From Planctomycetota bacterium (GTDB lineage Bacteria; Planctomycetota; UBA1135; UBA2386), in the NCBI GenBank assembly GCA_046290465.1, contig JBKAGP010000001.1, forward strand, positions 2,144,001-2,208,000: a stretch of DNA of 64,000 nucleotides, read 5' to 3'. Below the pieces are notes generated by a model, which made no database searches, was not told the origin of the DNA, and saw nothing but the letters and a program-made list of their open reading frames with translations. Of the stretch, positions 31,495 through 39,476 are shown piece after piece (positions within the stretch are counted from its first letter, which is position 1; the number at the start of each line of letters is the position of its first letter). Made by a program: the position numbers and the translations under genes.

Positions 31495-31549
31495 CGCTTC
31501 CTGCTAGCGGAGCGTTGCTACCAGGCAGTAGCGACGCCCCTCAAGAAGA

Positions 31550-31702
31550 TCACTTCTTGGCGGCCTTCTTGGCCGGCGCCTTCTTGGCCTTCTTCTTGGT
31601 GGCCTTCTTCTTCGTGGCCTTCTTCTTGGTGGCCTTCTTCTTCGCGGTCTTCTTGGCGGTCTTCTTGACCGTCTTCTTCTTAGCCTTCTTCTTGGCAGCC
31701 AT
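31550..31702 (-). CDS. Histone H1-like Lys/Ala-rich DNA-binding protein (50 aa)
   Basis: MAAKKKAKKKTVKKTAKKTAKKKATKKKATKKKATKKKAKKAPAKKAAKK; AAGGA RBS upstream. Confidence 0.8.
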   Translation of the reverse strand: MAAKKKAKKKTVKKTAKKTAKKKATKKKATKKKATKKKAKKAPAKKAAKK

Positions 31703-32125
31703 TGCTTGGTCCTTGTTAGGGTTTTGTGGGGGAGACCGGCACGAGGCCCGCGGTTGCGAACCCACCAAACTCCGGCCGGAGGTAGTGATCGGCAAACGGC
31801 GAATCGGAATTCACCGGAACTCCCCATGCCACCAAGAGATAGTGACAAAACGGCGCGGCGAATCCATTTGCGAAGAAGTAGGAATCGCCACAAAAGTGGC
31901 CGCGCGTCGCAGCTTTAACCTGCTTGGAGGCATTCTTGCCGGGCCGCGTTTTTTTCTGATTTTGGTTGCGCGCCGGGCCCCCCGAACAGCGGCAAGACCC
32001 GTGGAAACGTCTCCACAACGACCACCCAGAACGCCCCGGTCAACGCAACGAGCCACGTGCAGCAGCAGGCTGCACGTGGCTCGTCGTCGCGGCTCGCGGA
32101 CCGTCGTCCGCAGCACGTCGCGAAG

Positions 32126-32644
32126 CTAGTCGAACAGGTTGTCGAGCTTGTTCTTCGCGTCCGAACCAAACTCCTCGTCGAGGCCTTCGTCGATCGGCTC
32201 GCGGTTCAACGCGTCGCGGTAGATGTCGGCGAGCTTCTTGGCGGTCTCACCCGCGTAGAGGCGCACCATGCCGACCGTCGTGCGGTCGTCGAACAGGATC
32301 GTCAGCAGCGTGCGGTCCCCCACCAGCGAGAGCTGGATGTTGTCGCGCTCACCCTGGTGGAACATCGCGGTGAACTCCTCTTCGCCGAGCAGCCGCGCCA
32401 TCTCCTTGGTCGCCGCGAACGAACCGGCGACCAGCGCCGAGATCGTGTCGATGTCGATCGTGCGCAGCTCGCCGCGCTTGGTCACCAGGTGACCTTCCTT
32501 GTCGATCAACAGCGCGCACTTGGCGCCACTGAGTCGCAGGAACTCGGCAAGCAGCTTGTCGATGCGATCGATGTCCTCCTTGTAGAAGGTCAGCCGATCG
32601 TGTCGCAGGCGTTGGTTCTGCGACATCGCTTTGGAATCAGACAT
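32126..32644 (-). CDS. mglB: MglB-like roadblock/LC7 GTPase-activating protein
   Basis: ALLIDKEGHLV, ISALVAGSFAA, LGEEEF..FHQG, FDDRTTVGMVRL and C-terminal ..DNLF helix, as in MglB. Confidence 0.88.
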   Translation of the reverse strand: MSDSKAMSQNQRLRHDRLTFYKEDIDRIDKLLAEFLRLSGAKCALLIDKEGHLVTKRGELRTIDIDTISALVAGSFAATKEMARLLGEEEFTAMFHQGERDNIQLSLVGDRTLLTILFDDRTTVGMVRLYAGETAKKLADIYRDALNREPIDEGLDEEFGSDAKNKLDNLFD

Positions 32645-32650
32645 GTGCGA

Positions 32651-33610
32651 TCAGAACTGGGGGTTGCCGAAGACGAAGTAGGCGACACCGGCAGCCGCCA
32701 CGAGCAGCGTGACGGTCAGCCCGACGACCAGTCCGACGCCACCCTTCTTCGGCGCGGGGCTGTTCGCAGCGGGCCGCGCCGCGTTGCGGCGGCCGTTGTT
32801 GGCCGGGCGCGCGCCCTTCTGGGCGCCGGCCGGCGGAGCCCCCGCCTTGCGCTTGCGCGGCGCGCCCTTCGGGCCACCGGCAGCGGGTCGGGCGGCAGCG
32901 CGCTTCTGCGGCGCGCGCGCCTTCGGAGCGGCAGCCGGAGCGGCGGCAGGCGCCGCAGCGGGCGCGGCAGCGACCGGCGCAGCGGCCGGCTCGGCGGCCG
33001 GCGCCGGCTTGCGCGGGCTGCGGCCGTCGATCTTCTCGATGCTCTCCAGCACCATCGCGGCCAGCGTCTTCAGCGTGGGGAACACGCCTTCCCCGGTGTA
33101 GGCGACCGCCTCGAAGGTCGGCACGCCGAACTTGTTCATGATCTTGTCGATCTCGGCGACCGGCAGCGCGTTCGGCAGGTCGCGCTTGTTGTACTGGATG
33201 ACGTGCGGCAGCTCGCGGATGTCCTTGCCGTACTCGGCGAGGTTCTCGATCAGGTTCGCGTAGCTCTCGACGTTCTCGTCCATCTTGTCCGGATCGGAGT
33301 CCGCGACGAAGATGACGCCGTCGACGCCCTGCAGCACCAGCTTGCGGGTCGAGTTGTAGTAGACCTGACCAGGCACCGTGTAGAGCTGGAACTTGGTCCG
33401 CATGCCCGCGACGTTGCCGAGGTCGAGCGGCATGAAGTCGAAGAACAGCGTGCGGTCGCCGTCGGTCGAGATCGACGTCAGCTCCCCCTTGTTCTCTTCA
33501 GGGGCCTTTTGATGCACGATCTCGAGGTTGGTGGTCTTGCCACTCATACCCGGACCGTAGAACACGACCTTGCAGTTGACTTCCTTGAGCGCGAAGTTGA
33601 TCTGGACCAT
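32651..33610 (-). CDS. mglA: MglA-family small GTPase with Ala/Pro/Lys-rich linker and C-terminal transmembrane helix
   Basis: KVVFYGPGMSGKTTNL, DRTLFFDF, LYTVPGQVYY, YNKRD, EAVA; then a ~100-aa low-complexity linker and VGLVVGLTVTLLVAAAGVAYFVF. Confidence 0.92.
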   Translation of the reverse strand: MVQINFALKEVNCKVVFYGPGMSGKTTNLEIVHQKAPEENKGELTSISTDGDRTLFFDFMPLDLGNVAGMRTKFQLYTVPGQVYYNSTRKLVLQGVDGVIFVADSDPDKMDENVESYANLIENLAEYGKDIRELPHVIQYNKRDLPNALPVAEIDKIMNKFGVPTFEAVAYTGEGVFPTLKTLAAMVLESIEKIDGRSPRKPAPAAEPAAAPVAAAPAAAPAAAPAAAPKARAPQKRAAARPAAGGPKGAPRKRKAGAPPAGAQKGARPANNGRRNAARPAANSPAPKKGGVGLVVGLTVTLLVAAAGVAYFVFGNPQF

Positions 33611-33811
33611 GGTTGGCGCGTCCGCGTGGTGTTGCCTTCGTGTCGACGAACTCGACACTTCTCAGGTGCCTGTTCATCGGACGAACGACGGGCCAGGCTT
33701 GAGTCTGCGGCGCAAATCGTCGCAACCTGAACCGTCGTTCCGGGACACCCCGAAGTCGTCGGCACGGCGGTGCCGGTGCGGCCGTTCGCGCAGGGCGCGA
33801 TGGCAACGCGA

Positions 33812-34171
33812 TCAGGCGAGCCGCGACGCGCGGCGGATGCGGGTGACCGCCTCGTCAACCTCGCGGTCGGCCTGGTCGATCTCCGCGAACTGGTCGAACA
33901 ACACGACCAGGTAGCTGTCGTCGAGCTGGACCAGCACGGCCTTGCCGTGGGTCGCGTTGAGCAGCAGCTTGGTGCAGACGCCGTAGCCGCCCTCGTCGAG
34001 GCTGCGGTTGGTCGTCATCATCAGGTAGGACGACAGGCCCGAGATCACGTCCGGGTCCAACCCGGTCGCCAGCGACGACGCCGCGACCAGACCGTCCCTG
34101 GTCACGACGGCGGCGCCGCGCACGCCGGGGGCGTGCCGCAGCTCGGCGATGGCATCCTGGATCTTGCTCAT
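33812..34171 (-). CDS. Roadblock/LC7 domain protein
   Basis: LRHAPGVRGAAVVTRDGLVAAS, ATHGKAVL; GGAG RBS. Confidence 0.85.
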   Translation of the reverse strand: MSKIQDAIAELRHAPGVRGAAVVTRDGLVAASSLATGLDPDVISGLSSYLMMTTNRSLDEGGYGVCTKLLLNATHGKAVLVQLDDSYLVVLFDQFAEIDQADREVDEAVTRIRRASRLA

Positions 34172-34173
34172 GG

Positions 34174-35271
34174 CTACTCCTCCACCGCGTGCAGTGCGCC
34201 CGCGACGATCTCCTGCAGCTCGGCCAGCACCGCTTCGACGTCGGCGCCGGCGGTGACCTGCGCGGCGGCGAGGGCCTCGCCGTAGACGCAGATGCAGATG
34301 CGACCGTAGTCCCCTTCGATGATGGTCTTGGCGGCGCTACCGATGTCGAGGCGACGGGCGAACCGGTGGGCCGCCTTGGCCGACACGCGCACGATGCGCA
34401 AGAACGGGTCGCGCCCGTCCTTGATCGCGCCCTTGACCATCGCCTTCGAACCGCGGATGAACGTCGCCTTCTGCACCCCTTCGAGCTCGGCGACGCTGGC
34501 GAGGCCAGCGCGCACCGAGGCCACCGACTGGCCGCTGCTGGCGGCCTTCGGCTCGACCTTCAGCGAAGGATGCAGCAGCGAGCCGTGCGACTCGACCTCG
34601 TCGAGCAGCGAGTCGAGGTTGCCGCCCTTGTCGGCAAGGCTCGCGACGTGCGTCAGCAGCTGGTCGAGTTCGGGGTCGTCCGGTTCGAGTTCGTGCAGCG
34701 CCTGCAGGTGCTTCTGGGCCTCGCCGACGGCGCCGACGCGGTAGAGCACCTCGCTCAACAGACGACGCGACTGCGCCTCGTCCGGATCCATGCCGACGGC
34801 ACGCTCGAGACACTGCACGGCCTCCATGCCCTCGCGCGCGGCGAGGTCGCGGTAGAAGCTGGTCAGGCGCGCCTGGCCGAGCACGAGCCAGCAGCCCGCG
34901 TCGTCGGGGAACCGCAGGCTCCACTCCTGGCACAGCTGGTGCAGCGCGTTGTTGTCGCCGAGCTCGACGTGGATCATCGCCAGCTCGCGGAACAGCTTGG
35001 GGTTCGGCGAACGGGTCAGCTTGGCGCGCAGTTCGTTGGCGCGGCGGTTGCGGAGCCCGCGACGAGCGCAGTCCAGCAGCTGCCGCAGCTCGATCGACTT
35101 CGGGAACAGCGCGATGCCGTCCTCGGCCATGTGCTCGGCCTTGTCGTGCAGGTCGAGGTTGATGTAGACCTGGCCGAGGTCGACGAACGTCGACGGCGAC
35201 GGCTGCTCCTTGGCCCGCTGCTCGAGGCGGCGCAGCTCCTTCCAGATCTTCATTCGCTGGATCAGGTGCAT
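34174..35271 (-). CDS. TPR-repeat protein with C-terminal roadblock-like domain
   Basis: TPR-like helices (FVDLGQVY, AVQCLERAV..DP, LSEVLYRVG); C-terminal LASVAELEGVQKATFI..LDIG..IIEGDYG. Confidence 0.72.
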   Translation of the reverse strand: MHLIQRMKIWKELRRLEQRAKEQPSPSTFVDLGQVYINLDLHDKAEHMAEDGIALFPKSIELRQLLDCARRGLRNRRANELRAKLTRSPNPKLFRELAMIHVELGDNNALHQLCQEWSLRFPDDAGCWLVLGQARLTSFYRDLAAREGMEAVQCLERAVGMDPDEAQSRRLLSEVLYRVGAVGEAQKHLQALHELEPDDPELDQLLTHVASLADKGGNLDSLLDEVESHGSLLHPSLKVEPKAASSGQSVASVRAGLASVAELEGVQKATFIRGSKAMVKGAIKDGRDPFLRIVRVSAKAAHRFARRLDIGSAAKTIIEGDYGRICICVYGEALAAAQVTAGADVEAVLAELQEIVAGALHAVEE

Positions 35272-35279
35272 CGCATCTC

Positions 35280-38200
35280 CTAGCGGAACAGGACCACCTG
35301 GCCCTCGGGTGTCGGCATCGCGACGGACATGCCGTCGACGCCGAGCGGGCCCGGGCCGTTGTCGGAAAGGGCGAACTCCCACAGCACGCTGGCGGTCGCC
35401 GCGTCGATCGCGACCAGCGCTTCGTGCACCGGCTTGTCGGTCGAACGCGGTCGGCGCACGCGCGCGAACGCGCGACCGCCCTGGGTGGCGAGGCCCATCA
35501 CCAGGTCGTCCATCGCGACCGCACCGACCTCGTTCCCGCTGGCGCGGTCGAACGAGACGATCCGGCCCTCGGCGACGACCACGACCCGGTCCGAGGTCAT
35601 CGCCAGGTCGCGGTCGCTCGGCGTGCGGCCGATCGACTGCGTCCACAGCACCTTGCCCGCTTCGAAGTCGACCGCCCGGACCGCGCCGTCGGCGCAGCCG
35701 AACACGATCAGCTTGCCGTCGACGTGGATGCGCGTGGTCACGCCCGCCGGACTGCGCAGCACGCCGAGGCTCTTGCCGTCCGACACGTCGAACACCATCA
35801 CCCGGCCGTCCAGCGTGCCGACGTAGGCCTTGCGGCGCACGATGGTCGGCGGCCCCGACGGCGCGTCGCCGAGCGACACGCCCCAGAGGCGGCGCCCGCT
35901 CGACTGCTCCCAGCAGTGCAGCACGTTGCCGTTGTCGATCAGCGCGACGCGGCCGTCGCCGAGCACCAGCGAGGTCTGCGCATCGGCCTCGAGCTTGACC
36001 GGCCAGTTGCCGGCACGCACGCTCGGGTCGACCGGCACGCACTCGATCGTGCCCTCGTTGCTGAGGAAGAAGATCCTGCCGTTGGCGACTGCCGGGGTCG
36101 CGTCGACCGCCTTGAGGCCGGTCAGCTCGCGCACCTGGCGGTTGGTGCCGTCAGTGCGGGCGAAGCCGACGCGGCCGCCGCGCAGGCCGAGCGCGACCCA
36201 GCCGTCGCCGACGCCGACGCCGGTCTGCGCCGGCGTGCCGAACTCGACGACGTGCTCGGGCACGACCGCCATCACCACTTCGACCTCGGCCGACTCACGG
36301 CCGTTGACGACGATCTCCTGCTCCTCGAAACCCTCGAGCTTCGCGGTCAGCCGCACCGGCTGGTCGGCCTGGCAGAGCACCAGACCGGGCGTCAGCACCG
36401 GCTCCTGACGGCCGTCCACGACGCGCATCAATGGCTTGCCGTCGTGCATCAGCTGGGCACCCGGCGGCCGGGTCGTGACCGTGACCGGGACCCGCACGCG
36501 GCGGCCATCGGCGGTCCGTTCGAAGTCGGTCTGCAGCTGCAGCGCGACCTTCCGCGCCTTGCCGAAGTCCCCGGTCGCGACCGCGGCGTCGTAGGCGGCA
36601 CCGAGCTCCTTCGCCTTGGCGAGGAACTCGCTGAGGTTCTTCCAGGTCAGCTGCACCTTCTGCTCGTGCGCCCACTCGACGTCGACGGCACTGCCGGCCT
36701 CCTTGACCAGCTCGCGGACCTGCTCGATCGAAGCCAGCGCCTGCTCGGGGTTGCCGCCGAGGAACTGCTCGCGGTGGCGGTTCCAGGCCGTCTTGTACTT
36801 CTTGCGCAGGCCGTTGAGGTGCGCGTCGCGCGCCGCCTTCTCGGACGCGAGCCGCGCCTCGAACATCTCCTGCGCGGAGGTGATCTTCTGCAGCTCCGCC
36901 TCGGCCTTCGAGATCGAGGTCGTCAGCGGGTGCTGCGCGATGAAGTCGGCGTAGCGCGCCTTGGCGCCGGCGAAGTCCTCGGTCGCGACCAGCTCGGTGA
37001 CGTCGATCGCGGCGAAGTCCTCCTGCGCGCGCTCGTTGTAGAACCAGTAGCCCGAGCCGAGCACCAGCAGCAGGCAGAACATCACCGCCAGCACGCTCAG
37101 CGCGCGGCTGCGCTTGCGCGACCGCTCGTCGAACTCGTAGAGGCGCCGGACCCGCTCCGAGATGTCGGTGCGGCTGCGATCCAGCAGCAGGATCTTCTGC
37201 AGGTAGCTGACCGCTTCGAGCGGCTTGTTGCGACGCACCAGGTCGTCGGCGATCGACTCGTAGAGCTGCACGACCCGCTTCTGGTCGCCGGCGCGCACGT
37301 GCACGTTGACCAGCGCCTTCTTGAGGTCCGGGTCGTTGGGCTCGACCAGCAGCAGTCGCTCGAGCAGCGCGCGCACGCGCTGGATGTCGCCGAACTCGGT
37401 CAGCAGGTCGACCAGCTCCTTGCCCTCGGCCAGCGCGTCGAAGCCGTCCAGGCGCACGCCGTCGGGGCCGACGCACAGCTCGACCAGGCGTTCGCGCGCC
37501 CCGAGGTTGGTCGGCACCAGCTGGCGCACCTCGCTGAGGCAGCGCGCCGCGCCGTCGAAGTCCTGTTGGCCGATGCGATGCTCCGCCTCGGACTCGAGAT
37601 GGTAGATGGCCAGTTCGTACTGCTCGGCGGCCTGGTAGGCGCGCGCGGCCAGCGCGTGGCTGTCGGGAAGGCCGACGCCGACCTCGATGGCGCGCTCGTA
37701 GAGCGCGATCGCGTCCTGCAGGCGGCCCTCGCCCATGCACTCGTCCCCGAGCGCGATCAGGTCCTCCTCGGCGATCGGCGCGACCACGCCGGCGTCGAGG
37801 AACTGGCTGAGCGTCTTGCAGACCAGGAAGTTGGTCAGGCCGGTCAGCTCGCAGACGCGGGCGACGTTGCGGCGACCGTCGAGCAGTTCGAAGATCGCAG
37901 GGCCGTCGGTGCCGTATTCCTCACCCTCGATGTAGTCCGCGGTCGCGACCAGGATCTCCGCCGTGCTCGGGATCCGCTCGGTGATGTAGGCCCACTCGTC
38001 GATGCGACGGGCGGCCTCCATGATGATGCTGTCGCAGTTGAAGAAGAACCGCTCGTCGATCGCCCCGTCGCGGCCTTCCAGTTCGGTGGTGTTCTCGTGG
38101 AACTCGAACTTGGCGTCGCTGTTGAAGAAGAGGTCGTAGATCTCCTCCTCGAGCTCGATGCGGTACTGGTATTCGAGTTCGCTCTGCTCGAGATACCCGC

Positions 38201-38483
38201 CGGCGAGCAGGCTGTCGGCCAGCGACTGCCCCATGCGAACGGCATGATCACGGACTTCGTCGACCGACTCCTCGAGCAGGCGGCCGGAGCGCACGCTGGC
38301 GGCGACGACCTTGTCGAGCAGCCGGTGCACGTTGTGGTGCACGGTGACACCACGCTGATCGAAGTACAGAACCTTCCACAGCTTGGCAGAATGGATGCTC
38401 AGCAGGCCGACCTTCTTGTTGAGGGCCAGCATCTGGAACACCTGGGCCAGATCTACACTGGCAAGATCCCCTCGTAGTGCCAT
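35280..38483 (-). CDS. DUF4388 - TPR - TM - PEGA - PQQ-like beta-propeller multidomain membrane protein
   Basis: N-terminal MALRGDLASVDLAQVFQMLALNKKVGLL...MEAARRIDEW (DUF4388); TPRs; TM LSVLAVMFCLLLVLGSGYWFY; TTRPPGA...TP...LEGF (PEGA); G..LW propeller repeats. Confidence 0.85.
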   Translation of the reverse strand: MALRGDLASVDLAQVFQMLALNKKVGLLSIHSAKLWKVLYFDQRGVTVHHNVHRLLDKVVAASVRSGRLLEESVDEVRDHAVRMGQSLADSLLAGGYLEQSELEYQYRIELEEEIYDLFFNSDAKFEFHENTTELEGRDGAIDERFFFNCDSIIMEAARRIDEWAYITERIPSTAEILVATADYIEGEEYGTDGPAIFELLDGRRNVARVCELTGLTNFLVCKTLSQFLDAGVVAPIAEEDLIALGDECMGEGRLQDAIALYERAIEVGVGLPDSHALAARAYQAAEQYELAIYHLESEAEHRIGQQDFDGAARCLSEVRQLVPTNLGARERLVELCVGPDGVRLDGFDALAEGKELVDLLTEFGDIQRVRALLERLLLVEPNDPDLKKALVNVHVRAGDQKRVVQLYESIADDLVRRNKPLEAVSYLQKILLLDRSRTDISERVRRLYEFDERSRKRSRALSVLAVMFCLLLVLGSGYWFYNERAQEDFAAIDVTELVATEDFAGAKARYADFIAQHPLTTSISKAEAELQKITSAQEMFEARLASEKAARDAHLNGLRKKYKTAWNRHREQFLGGNPEQALASIEQVRELVKEAGSAVDVEWAHEQKVQLTWKNLSEFLAKAKELGAAYDAAVATGDFGKARKVALQLQTDFERTADGRRVRVPVTVTTRPPGAQLMHDGKPLMRVVDGRQEPVLTPGLVLCQADQPVRLTAKLEGFEEQEIVVNGRESAEVEVVMAVVPEHVVEFGTPAQTGVGVGDGWVALGLRGGRVGFARTDGTNRQVRELTGLKAVDATPAVANGRIFFLSNEGTIECVPVDPSVRAGNWPVKLEADAQTSLVLGDGRVALIDNGNVLHCWEQSSGRRLWGVSLGDAPSGPPTIVRRKAYVGTLDGRVMVFDVSDGKSLGVLRSPAGVTTRIHVDGKLIVFGCADGAVRAVDFEAGKVLWTQSIGRTPSDRDLAMTSDRVVVVAEGRIVSFDRASGNEVGAVAMDDLVMGLATQGGRAFARVRRPRSTDKPVHEALVAIDAATASVLWEFALSDNGPGPLGVDGMSVAMPTPEGQVVLFR

Positions 38484-38639: not shown

Positions 38640-39476
38640 ATGCCCTCCCTGAGCCGAGTGTTCGCCATCGCCCGCGCCAGCGCGCATTCCGCGCTCGGCT
38701 GGGTCGCGTACCGATTCGGCTGGCTGGGACCCGCGAGGCGGCAGTACGAACGCGTGCTGCTGCTGCGAGGCGCCGACTTCCAGGCCTACGTCCACCTCGG
38801 ACGGATCGCGTTCGACCAGGGCGACTACGCCGGCTGGCGGCGCGAGTTCGAACACGCGCGGCGCACCGACCCGATCCGCTTCGCCCGCCTGCGCCACCCG
38901 CTGGAGTTGTTCGAGCCCCGTCTGGCCGGCACCCAGTTCGACCCGCACGGCCTGGTCGACCCGACCGCGCCCGACGACGGCGACGGCTTTCAGGCCACCG
39001 ACGCCCGGGCGACCTGGCGCAGCCTGCACCCGTTCGGGCAGCGGCCGCGCGACGCCAGTGCCGGTGAGGGCTTCGGCCGCGGCATCGACCTGCCGCTGGC
39101 GCCGGGCTACGACCCGATGATGCCGGGCCAGCAGCTCGACGACCGCGACCCTGCCCATCCCCTGGGGGACGATCCGATCGGGGACGACCTCTCGAGGGAC
39201 GATCCCAATCGCAGCGACCGGGATCGTGCTGGCCGCAAGCATTCGGGTCCGGAGCGACACGACGACGTTCCCGCCGACGACCTGCAGGAGAGCGCGGATC
39301 CGTTCGCGCAGGAGCGACAGCATCCGCTGCCGCCGCCGCCGCCGGACGCGTCGCTGACCCGCGACGACTTCTCGTCGCCGTCGGAGCGACGCCGCTTCCA
39401 GCTGCGCCGACCGATCGACCGCCAGGAGATCGCGCGTTGCGACCTCAACGATCTGGCGCGCCGGCTGTCGGGCTGA
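38640..39476 (+). CDS. Hypothetical protein, N-terminal TPR-like helices and acidic disordered C-terminal half
   Basis: AHSALGWVAYRFG, AYVHLGRIAF; Asp/Pro-rich tail; divergent from the Mgl cluster. Confidence 0.6.
   Translation: MPSLSRVFAIARASAHSALGWVAYRFGWLGPARRQYERVLLLRGADFQAYVHLGRIAFDQGDYAGWRREFEHARRTDPIRFARLRHPLELFEPRLAGTQFDPHGLVDPTAPDDGDGFQATDARATWRSLHPFGQRPRDASAGEGFGRGIDLPLAPGYDPMMPGQQLDDRDPAHPLGDDPIGDDLSRDDPNRSDRDRAGRKHSGPERHDDVPADDLQESADPFAQERQHPLPPPPPDASLTRDDFSSPSERRRFQLRRPIDRQEIARCDLNDLARRLSG

Follow-up and report, generated by a model that had tools for sequence, protein, structure and literature searches.

The five genes analysed here encode a polarity switch of a known kind, MglA/MglB, of which a membrane-tied variant is newly recognised. 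They lie in what we call the window, that is, the whole 64,000-nucleotide stretch of Planctomycetota DNA under study (table 1). We favour, with modest confidence, a reading in which this membrane-confined MglA/MglB switch positions or activates surface-motility machinery, type IV pili being the most likely case. The five-gene set most likely controls the site at which that machinery assembles, because mglAB have a promoter motif in common with type IV pilus genes.

Table 1. Features of the mglAB locus (positions in the window).
Feature	Position	Strand	Description
g1	35280-38483	minus	1067 aa; PATAN(DUF4388)-wHTH-TPR-TM-helical stalk-PEGA-like-beta-propeller membrane protein
g1 PATAN/DUF4388 domain	37989..38474	minus	aa 4-165; MshEN-like helical insert at ~aa 52-110, degenerate in this genome
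g1 cytoplasmic TPR array	37128..37772	minus	aa 238-452
g1 single transmembrane helix	37038..37103	minus	~aa 461-482; N-terminus inside (predicted)
g1 extracytoplasmic part	35283..36497	minus	PEGA-like sandwich (aa 663-737) and BamB/PQQ-type beta-propeller (aa 738-1067)
g2	34174-35271	minus	365 aa; TPR array (aa 2-229) and degenerate Roadblock domain (aa 246-364)
g3	33812-34171	minus	119 aa; stand-alone Roadblock/LC7 protein
Sigma-28-like promoter motif	33674..33703	minus	CTCAAG-N17-CCGATGA, in the 201-bp gap before mglAB
mglA	32651-33610	minus	319 aa from ATG
mglB	32126-32644	minus	172 aa; Roadblock GAP (predicted) with acidic C-terminal helix

As originally predicted, the five genes are co-oriented, all on the minus strand, with the expected domains and with gaps of 8, 2, 201 and 6 bp in the order g1-g2-g3-mglA-mglB; in close loci the start of g3 usually overlaps the stop of g2 (median gap -4 bp, n=78). 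The gene-neighbourhood survey proposed as a check was run within Planctomycetota and revealed a conserved cluster. Indeed, the gene order was identical in 52/52 close loci of sufficient length, so that the five-gene cluster is not due to chance. mglB lies at most four genes from mglA in all 60 close loci with adequate DNA and in 37 of 40 distant ones, and in this distant sample (40 loci from 39 families) most of the genes recur: g2 in 38 loci, g3 in 38, mglB in 37 and the PATAN-propeller gene in 26.

MglA is composed of a group-1 G domain (aa 1-195), an Ala/Pro/Arg-rich linker of 98 aa (196-293) and a C-terminal membrane helix (~294-313), and matches Myxococcus xanthus MglA with 249 bits. The group-1 signature includes an intrinsic arginine finger and a TVPGQ G3 motif (PMC4316618); both the R53 finger and TVPGQ are present in 71/71 aligned MglAs, in which G21, K25, T26, R53, T54, T78, P80, Q82, N141, K142 and D144 are invariant and residue 181 is always K or R. 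The identity of the G domain reaches 86-99% in the best 80 loci and 59-78% across families. The membrane helix was found in 62/64 close and 34/37 evaluable distant MglAs, the remaining three distant proteins having basic, amphipathic-type C-terminal tails (net +3 to +7). The part of the proposal that sees a conserved module built on a membrane-tethered Ras-like GTPase is supported. With its linker and helix, this 319-aa protein falls outside the 150-240 aa single-domain range of the reference survey of MglA-type GTPases, which left out proteins longer than 240 aa (PMC4316618). MglB consists of a Roadblock core and an acidic C-terminal helix; it matches M. xanthus MglB with 99 bits in an alignment that extends to the C-terminus and includes this helix, and scores 109 bits, below the cut-off of 200, against the Thermus-specific NCBIfam model NF052242. 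As judged from these alignments, MglA carries the full group-1 catalytic set and a predicted tail anchor, and MglB retains the predicted GAP core and C-terminal helix.

g3 and MglB both match Pfam Robl_LC7; the Roadblock region of g2 has no Pfam match, the evidence for it being a profile-profile match to g3 (97.9%, E 6e-13) and a Foldseek match to the Roadblock protein 7yh1 (rmsd 2.6). The FDI motif of MglC, F25-D26-I28 (PMC7949163), is replaced in g3 by R25-D26-G27-L28 (compared by residue number), of which D26 and G27 are conserved. No chain named MglC was found among the matches of g3, the best being generic Roadblock proteins such as 7yh1, and its profile weakly matches LAMTOR2 (E 4e-4).

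In g1, the PATAN domain matches Pfam DUF4388 (PF14332) with 62.2 bits against a cut-off of 25 (Atlas 0.91), and further Pfam matches cover the TPRs and a PQQ_2 propeller. The transmembrane helix is preceded by an Arg/Lys cluster, K/R being richer before than after it in 85 of 86 aligned proteins, and its hydropathy exceeds 1.8 in 67 of these 86. Pfam PEGA does not match g1 itself, so this part of the original prediction was not directly borne out; ‘PEGA-like’ nevertheless seems a fair term, as the model matches the equivalent region of a g1 paralogue in the same genome, which a profile of the g1 region also retrieves. The MshEN c-di-GMP motif RLGxxL...G...Q is absent from this g1 and from all 71 close homologues; the corresponding model NF053729 does not match this g1, and its 14 matches among 38 family members are all in distant families.

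The link to motility comes from the promoter motif. CTCAAG-N17-CCGATGA was detected upstream of mglA in 67/80 close loci, versus 0.3 expected from shuffles; the control positions gave 0/68 for g1, 1/78 for g2, 0/63 for mglB, 0/48 for metG and 0/56 for the divergent neighbour. Among family relatives, the motif also precedes the secretin gene downstream of pilM (13/27 versus 0.18 expected) and a MshEN/PilT-like ATPase operon (18/19 versus 0.04 expected), these two tests having been picked once the motif had been spotted there in this genome, and related genomes not being independent. In this genome, the pilM promoter and one pilT promoter score 12.3 bits, versus a 99th percentile of 9.3 for 600 random windows; the motif is missing before one pilT and two pilB candidates (the pilB starts being approximate). 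In this lineage, mglAB and pilus genes thus carry a common predicted sigma-28-type promoter motif. It was also found upstream of cheA, cheX, four of the seven flagellin genes and several unrelated genes, and hence is the mark of a motility regulon in general, not of pili in particular. It is limited to this lineage: in the distant loci it occurs before mglA in 0/40 and before the first gene in 4/40; a pilin motif was found in only one of these 40 loci.

Sigma-28 (FliA) boxes are described as TCTAAAG (-35) and GCCGATAA (-10) (PMC12784957); CTCAAG and CCGATGA each differ from them by about one mismatch, with a spacer 2 bp longer than that of the Pseudomonas aeruginosa fliC promoter. The genome encodes three FliA-like sigmas, two FliA/WhiG sigma factors scoring above cut-off; the third has matches in only 3/301 genomes at a strict E<=1e-55. 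A sigma-70 promoter scan returned 0 sites. Since mglAB apparently possess a separate promoter, a transcript of all five genes is probably not the only one. Two raw RNA runs yielded 0 reads on the locus; contigs of one metatranscriptome touch 27/30 bins but come from mixed relatives, and show neither transcription nor a single transcript.

MglA was found in 173 of the 301 sampled Planctomycetota genomes. Its presence largely coincides with that of a g1-type PATAN profile (both 162, MglA alone 11, PATAN alone 17, neither 111), which, with the topology described above, supports the membrane-spanning PATAN-TPR-propeller partner of the original prediction. Among the 128 genomes in which MglA was not found are entire families with near-complete genomes (f7, 0/16; f34, a carrier of hydrazine synthase). 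PilT (294/301) and MreB (288/301) are near-universal and thus non-discriminating when profiled against MglA; pili accordingly exist without the MglA module. For the gliding machinery, the search for GltE gave only a weak TPR-type match, below cut-off.

The closest known systems are those of M. xanthus and Thermus thermophilus, in which MglA/MglB work with MglC, RomR/RomX, RomY and SgmX: the catalytic signature and the adjacent mglB with a C-terminal helix are the same, and an extra Roadblock protein, a TPR partner and a link to type IV pili are likewise shared. However, MglA is here tail-anchored and 319 aa long instead of ~195, the gene order is mglA-mglB, and the cluster also encodes two further Roadblocks and a membrane-spanning PATAN protein, whereas the Myxococcus partners are encoded elsewhere. 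A fixed membrane anchor is hard to reconcile with Myxococcus-style pole-to-pole oscillation. PATAN-associated group-1/5 MglA loci are known (PMC4316618, which cites Makarova 2006), as are PatA-type regulators; here, by comparison, PATAN belongs to a TPR-stalk-propeller protein that crosses the membrane once and lacks a receiver domain. A PATAN gene beside mglAB has already been recorded as occasional, in a survey whose text and searched supplements contain no planctomycete names (PMC4316618).

The actinobacterial conservon (AGPS, CvnABCD), which PMC13343842 defines as including the histidine kinase-like sensor CvnA, likewise unites a membrane protein, a Roadblock protein and a small GTPase in one operon. 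Yet none of the five proteins here matches a histidine kinase-like sensor or the CvnC family, and the conservon GTPase belongs to group 2 (GTPGQ, no arginine finger) while MglA belongs to group 1 (R53, TVPGQ), so the analogy with conservons drawn earlier fails. Eukaryotic Rag-Ragulator and Roadblock/longin GEFs also combine a membrane-held small GTPase with several Roadblock domains. This is an analogy, no orthology being shown: here the GTPase carries its own anchor, and the eukaryotic systems have nothing that corresponds to the TPR and PATAN parts. In Bdellovibrio, MglA again has a TPR partner near the envelope, in the MglA-Bd2492-TamAB hub, but this bacterium has no mglB, and Bd2492, encoded in a tamAB-like operon, lacks a predicted signal sequence (PMC3983030). 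The architecture had been put forward as undescribed, and our literature search, which covered papers available without subscription, likewise turned up no account of the five-gene operon or of an MglA with a tail anchor; these genes could be listed in supplement file 1 of PMC4316618 or in bioRxiv supplements. A single query on the promoter link to pilus genes returned nothing either.

In the membrane-confined switch that we favour, the GTP/GDP cycle of MglA would be governed by MglB as in Myxococcus, and MglA, held by a leash of ~100 aa, would be restricted to lateral movement within the membrane. g2 and g3 would pair as a TPR-borne Roadblock heterodimer and bring in or sort MglB and MglA, a task that falls to MglC, RomR and SgmX in Myxococcus. 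g1 would act as a scaffold or landmark in the membrane: the outer propeller would be retained in the envelope, and the cytoplasmic PATAN-TPR part would dock the switch, the pilus ATPases or both. The MshEN-like insert may allow g1 to sense c-di-GMP in some lineages. MglA-binding TPR proteins are known (SgmX; Bd2492, PMC3983030), the pilus motor interacts with PATAN regulators in cyanobacteria, and social motility of M. xanthus requires SgnC (10.1101/2021.06.11.447907). Weighing against this reading are the existence of pili without the module, the near absence of a pilin motif from the distant loci, and the distribution of the promoter motif, which is narrow and not specific to pili.

Alternatively, g1 could be a trans-envelope receptor: its propeller would bind an outside ligand, and g1 would act on the tethered MglA as a regulated GEF or GAP by way of PATAN/TPR and the g2-g3 Roadblocks. 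The topology of g1 fits such a role, g1 heads the operon in all 67 close loci with adequate upstream sequence, conservation is strong in PATAN columns such as E156-W164, Roadblock-fold GEFs are known in eukaryotes (PMC6785124), and variable ligands could suit a variable propeller. The outside part is nevertheless the least conserved (majority fraction 0.29-0.35, versus 0.55 in the PATAN core), its conserved columns are mainly structural W/G/P, column conservation displays no pocket or catalytic set, and g1 has no enzymatic output domain. Moreover, the PATAN-propeller gene is not beside mglA in 14/40 distant loci (one of which ends at a contig end), and is reduced to PATAN-TM or TPR-TM in three. 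Families f49 and f61 retain a full-length g1-type copy although MglA was not found in them, which also counts against the membrane-confined switch; in a quick g1 tree, with long-branch warnings, the f49 copies fall among mglA-linked g1 proteins (only 91% SH-aLRT). The dedicated receptor of the original prediction is weakened by these three observations (the outside part, the 26/40 linkage and the MglA-less copies), and we consider it unlikely. Pilin-like genes lie ~4 kb from the MglA-less g1 copy of f49.

The module might instead define the axis of the cell as a whole, serving FtsZ-independent division, budding, changes of shape or the engulfment of prey, with pili as just one client downstream; this seems still harder to sustain. 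Such a role would suit the high conservation of the G domain, the presence of MglA in three of five tested genomes without detected flagellin (85-89% complete), the MglA-like matches of some low-GC genomes (9-10 at most) and the description of crawling, shape-changing planctomycetes whose cells pull apart to divide (PMC11481906, 10.1101/817700). Against it, the genomes in which MglA was not found exclude a phylum-wide division factor, the promoter motif ties MglA to a motility regulon, and the recurrent neighbour clusters listed include no division gene. Highly improbable, finally, is a function in envelope biogenesis, in which a BamB-like propeller would dock on BamA/TamA and the GTPase would determine where outer-membrane proteins are assembled, as has been suggested for the Bdellovibrio hub (PMC3983030). 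BamB-type propellers are the best structural matches of the g1 AlphaFold2 model (pLDDT 88.7; Z 30.4, rmsd 3.1, 318 aligned), in whole-model searches whose matches are all taken up by the propeller, and the genome has a bamA gene; but the identity to BamB is just 12-18%, and WD40 and designed propellers follow within 1-2 Z units. The BamB and BamA cut-offs are not reached (69 bits versus 285 for BamB), the propeller shares the BamB fold but is fused to an inner-membrane protein, BamB being a stand-alone lipoprotein, and neither bamA nor tamAB is among the recurrent neighbour clusters listed.

The MglA proteins of the literature that we found are small and single-domain, and move between cell poles; the same switch is here tied to the membrane, in a module found in 173 of the 301 sampled Planctomycetota genomes. 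The module may have been overlooked because it is absent from several families of near-complete genomes. How direction is controlled is unexplained in the Planctomycetota cells that crawl, shift shape and engulf prey, and a term search in the main texts of some of the papers on such cells returned no ‘Mgl’. A bolder and very doubtful version would have the g1 propeller sense contact with a surface or prey, and PATAN-TPR with the Roadblock heterodimer, as a regulated GEF, make a local patch of tail-anchored MglA-GTP that defines the leading side of planctomycetes as they crawl, shift shape or engulf prey. If true, this Ras-like signalling platform in a bacterial membrane would parallel, in function, the receptor-activated and membrane-anchored Ras/Rho polarity of eukaryotes, and would supply the controller that the unexplained amoeboid movement of planctomycetes lacks. 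The finding raises the question of how a polarity switch works when it is unable to leave the membrane, and the operon offers five concrete genes and one promoter for testing.

The five-gene operon is real and conserved. The original prediction's open reading frames, with their strand, sizes and gaps (8, 2, 201 and 6 bp), were all confirmed, as were the DUF4388 domain, TPRs, transmembrane helix and propeller claimed for its first gene, g1 (by Pfam, hydropathy and an AlphaFold2 model). Among 473 relatives of the MglA G domain in a scan of species genomes, the best 80 (86–99% identity, mostly labelled Planctomycetota MAGs) define our close loci. Where the contig was long enough, these contained g1 in 67/67, the TPR-Roadblock gene g2 in 77/77, the stand-alone Roadblock gene g3 in 79/79 and mglB in 60/60 cases; the neighbourhood survey originally called for, run here within Planctomycetota, thus finds the cluster conserved, with all five genes in the same order in 52/52. 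The host genome has 70% GC, a value that agrees, in GC alone, with the one given for the ‘Saltatorellus’ clade.

Across the phylum, evenly sampled, MglA was matched in 173 of 301 genomes; three of these matches are weak and may represent a different MglA type. From MglA-positive genomes, 40 distant loci (39 families) were picked by length of contig available: 38 contained g2, 38 g3, 37 mglB and 26 the PATAN (DUF4388)-propeller gene, several misses being contig ends or masked DNA. These counts indicate that the conserved core is g2-g3-mglA-mglB; g1 varies in place, lying on either side of the core or away from it. In two loci (families f26 and f63), g1-type genes sit at both ends of the core, one upstream and the other downstream of mglB; downstream copies from f26, f51 and f63 group in a clade of their own. 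Genome-wide, the g1-type PATAN profile and MglA occurred together in 162 genomes, MglA alone in 11, PATAN alone in 17 (9 being weak matches in f34) and neither in 111, counts in which kin are not independent and paralogs are also picked up. No MglA was found in f7 (0/16 genomes), in f34, the family with hydrazine synthase, or in re-tested f49 and f61 genomes (97% and 91% complete); the last two families keep a full-length g1-like gene, which counts against strict g1-MglA coupling.

Features located in this study (G000, genome of the window; C1, its contig; G049, genome of f49)
Feature	Location	Strand	Observation
Shared motif, 201-bp gap	window 33674-33703		CTCAAG-N17-[C/T]CGATGA
Divergent small TPR gene	window 38640-39476	+	Acidic low-complexity middle; adjoins g1 in most close and 5 distant loci
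Short Lys/Ala-rich repeat ORF	window 31504-31893 region	-	Histone-like ‘KKAAKKK’ type, between mglB and metG; similar ORF in L132
Second MglA-like G domain	L002:1495-3369 = G000:C1 about 6585626-6587500	+	43% identity; acidic linker to apparent histidine kinase; weak motif copy upstream (11 bits)
Mixed pilus/flagellin locus	L140:914-3312 = G000:C1:4753914-4756312	+	MshEN-bearing PilT-like ATPase, second PilT-like gene, flagellin; preceded by the shared motif (18/19 relatives)
Flagellin genes and FliA-like sigma factors	G000:C1:4657406-4661254, 4756497, 5529650, 2841083		At least 7 strong flagellin genes, alongside three such sigma factors, in this one genome
g1 paralog	L123:10684-14301 = G000:C1:850684-854301	+	About 1206 aa; DUF4388, PEGA, propeller; two canonical-looking MshEN repeats; N-terminal segment presumably resembling the FliM CheY-binding motif; not beside mglA
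g1-like gene, full length	L127:8201-17079 (G049)		No MglA found in the genome; two pilin-like genes about 4 kb away

MglA and MglB match Myxococcus and Thermus structures, and the MglA group-1 signature (R53, TVPGQ, Q82) and nucleotide motifs are invariant in 71/71 sequences. MglB retains the C-terminal helix that has been tied to nucleotide exchange (PMC6785124), the roles of MglB and RomRX being under revision (PMC13408092). Unlike known MglA, the GTPase ends in a 98-aa Ala/Pro/Arg linker and a hydrophobic helix. This tail is present in 62/64 complete close ORFs (the exceptions being one apparent frameshift and one early stop) and in 34/37 evaluable distant ORFs, after two contig-cut rows and one masked row were dropped. 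The three remaining distant proteins come from loci of 34–35% GC and have basic, aromatic, amphipathic-looking ends. As nearly all these MglAs carry the transmembrane tail and the three distant exceptions such basic ends, membrane attachment itself appears to be under selection. The low-GC lineages with a basic amphipathic tail in place of the helix (f11, f46 and f22) resemble, in GC alone, published predatory planctomycete classes; genomes contain 3–9 MglA-like matches in f11 and f46, and 10 in f40.

Alignment of the 201-bp gap revealed a motif lying within 300 bp of mglA in 67/80 close loci (shuffles predict 0.3), with a spacer of 17 in 64 and of 16 in 3. It was found before g1 in 0/68, g2 in 1/78, mglB in 0/63, metG in 0/48 and the divergent neighbour in 0/56 close loci. 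Its boxes resemble sigma-28 elements described in PMC12784957, with a spacer 2 bp longer here; of three FliA-like sigma factors in the genome, two (FliA/WhiG) score above cut-off. High-scoring sites in this genome were intergenic in 10/12 cases for spacer 17 and 10/17 for spacer 16 (other spacers, 0–4). Nine further intergenic spacer-17 sites precede a secretin downstream of pilM (motif in 13/27 family relatives versus 0.18 expected, one short locus dropped), an MshEN/PilT-like ATPase operon (18/19 versus 0.04), a GspE-N1E/MshEN-like protein, cheA, and otherwise regulators or unknowns. Relative to the 99th percentile of random windows, pilM, one pilT and 4/7 flagellin genes (spacers 15–17) score above, and one pilT and two pilB (starts approximate) below. 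Since mglA shares the motif with pilus, cheA and flagellin genes, membership of mglAB in a motility regulon is the most likely reading for this lineage; across the 40 distant loci, the motif precedes the first gene in 4 and mglA in none.

Pfam places DUF4388/PATAN at residues 4–165 of the 1067-aa g1, ahead of TPRs and a PQQ/BamB-type propeller. The AlphaFold2 model (86 homologues, pLDDT 88.7) predicts a PATAN core with a helical insert, a winged-helix-like unit, TPRs to residue 452, a long helical stalk, a small beta-sandwich and the propeller. The single hydrophobic helix (about residues 461–482) follows an Arg/Lys cluster, and K/R are commoner before than after it in 85/86 aligned proteins, hence a PATAN-TPR part inside and a propeller outside. 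Such a topology could suit a ligand receptor relaying through g1, which we consider unlikely: among 22 diverse rows conservation peaks in the PATAN core (0.55) and is lowest outside (0.29–0.35), where W, G or P account for 11 of the 16 columns with at least 80% conservation, and g1 survives without MglA. Known partners of MglA include TPR proteins in Myxococcus and Bdellovibrio (the latter, PMC3983030), and Synechocystis PATAN regulators interact with the pilus motor (10.1101/2021.06.11.447907). With these precedents, a dedicated GEF-type receptor explains g1 less well than a landmark or scaffold does. The helical insert resembles MshEN; a c-di-GMP motif model matches 14/38 family members and not the g1 of the window, and the RLG motif occurs in 0/71 close homologues.

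The g2 Roadblock, missed by Pfam, was recognised through profile comparison with g3 (97.9%) and fold similarity to 7yh1 (rmsd 2.6); g3 is a Roadblock protein and at most a candidate MglC. The operon would work like the Myxococcus polarity module, from which its tailed MglA departs. The conservon reading, originally drawn as an analogy, was rejected, as the operon has no kinase and its MglA is of another group. The original view that the architecture was undescribed held in the literature searched, where no account of the operon was found. The reference survey of MglA (PMC4316618) noted occasional PATAN neighbours at mglA loci of groups 1 and 5 and left out GTPases above 240 aa, which probably explains why the tailed MglA went unnoticed.

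As to output, nearly every genome in the phylum sample has PilT and MreB, so profiling cannot separate the candidates. That the module sets a general axis for dividing, changing shape or engulfing seems rather improbable, slightly more so than the receptor relay. Least probable is a role in BAM-linked envelope assembly. The propeller shares its fold with BamB (alignment at Z 30.4, rmsd 3.1, 318 residues); its identity as BamB proper was rejected. We somewhat favour a membrane-confined MglA/MglB switch, for which anatomy, conservation, catalytic residues, tether and common motif are read from the sequence, and all contacts and the output are what we infer. The switch would work confined to the membrane, would be sorted there by the g2-g3 Roadblock pair together with a g1 landmark, and would thereby position type IV pili and related motility machinery.
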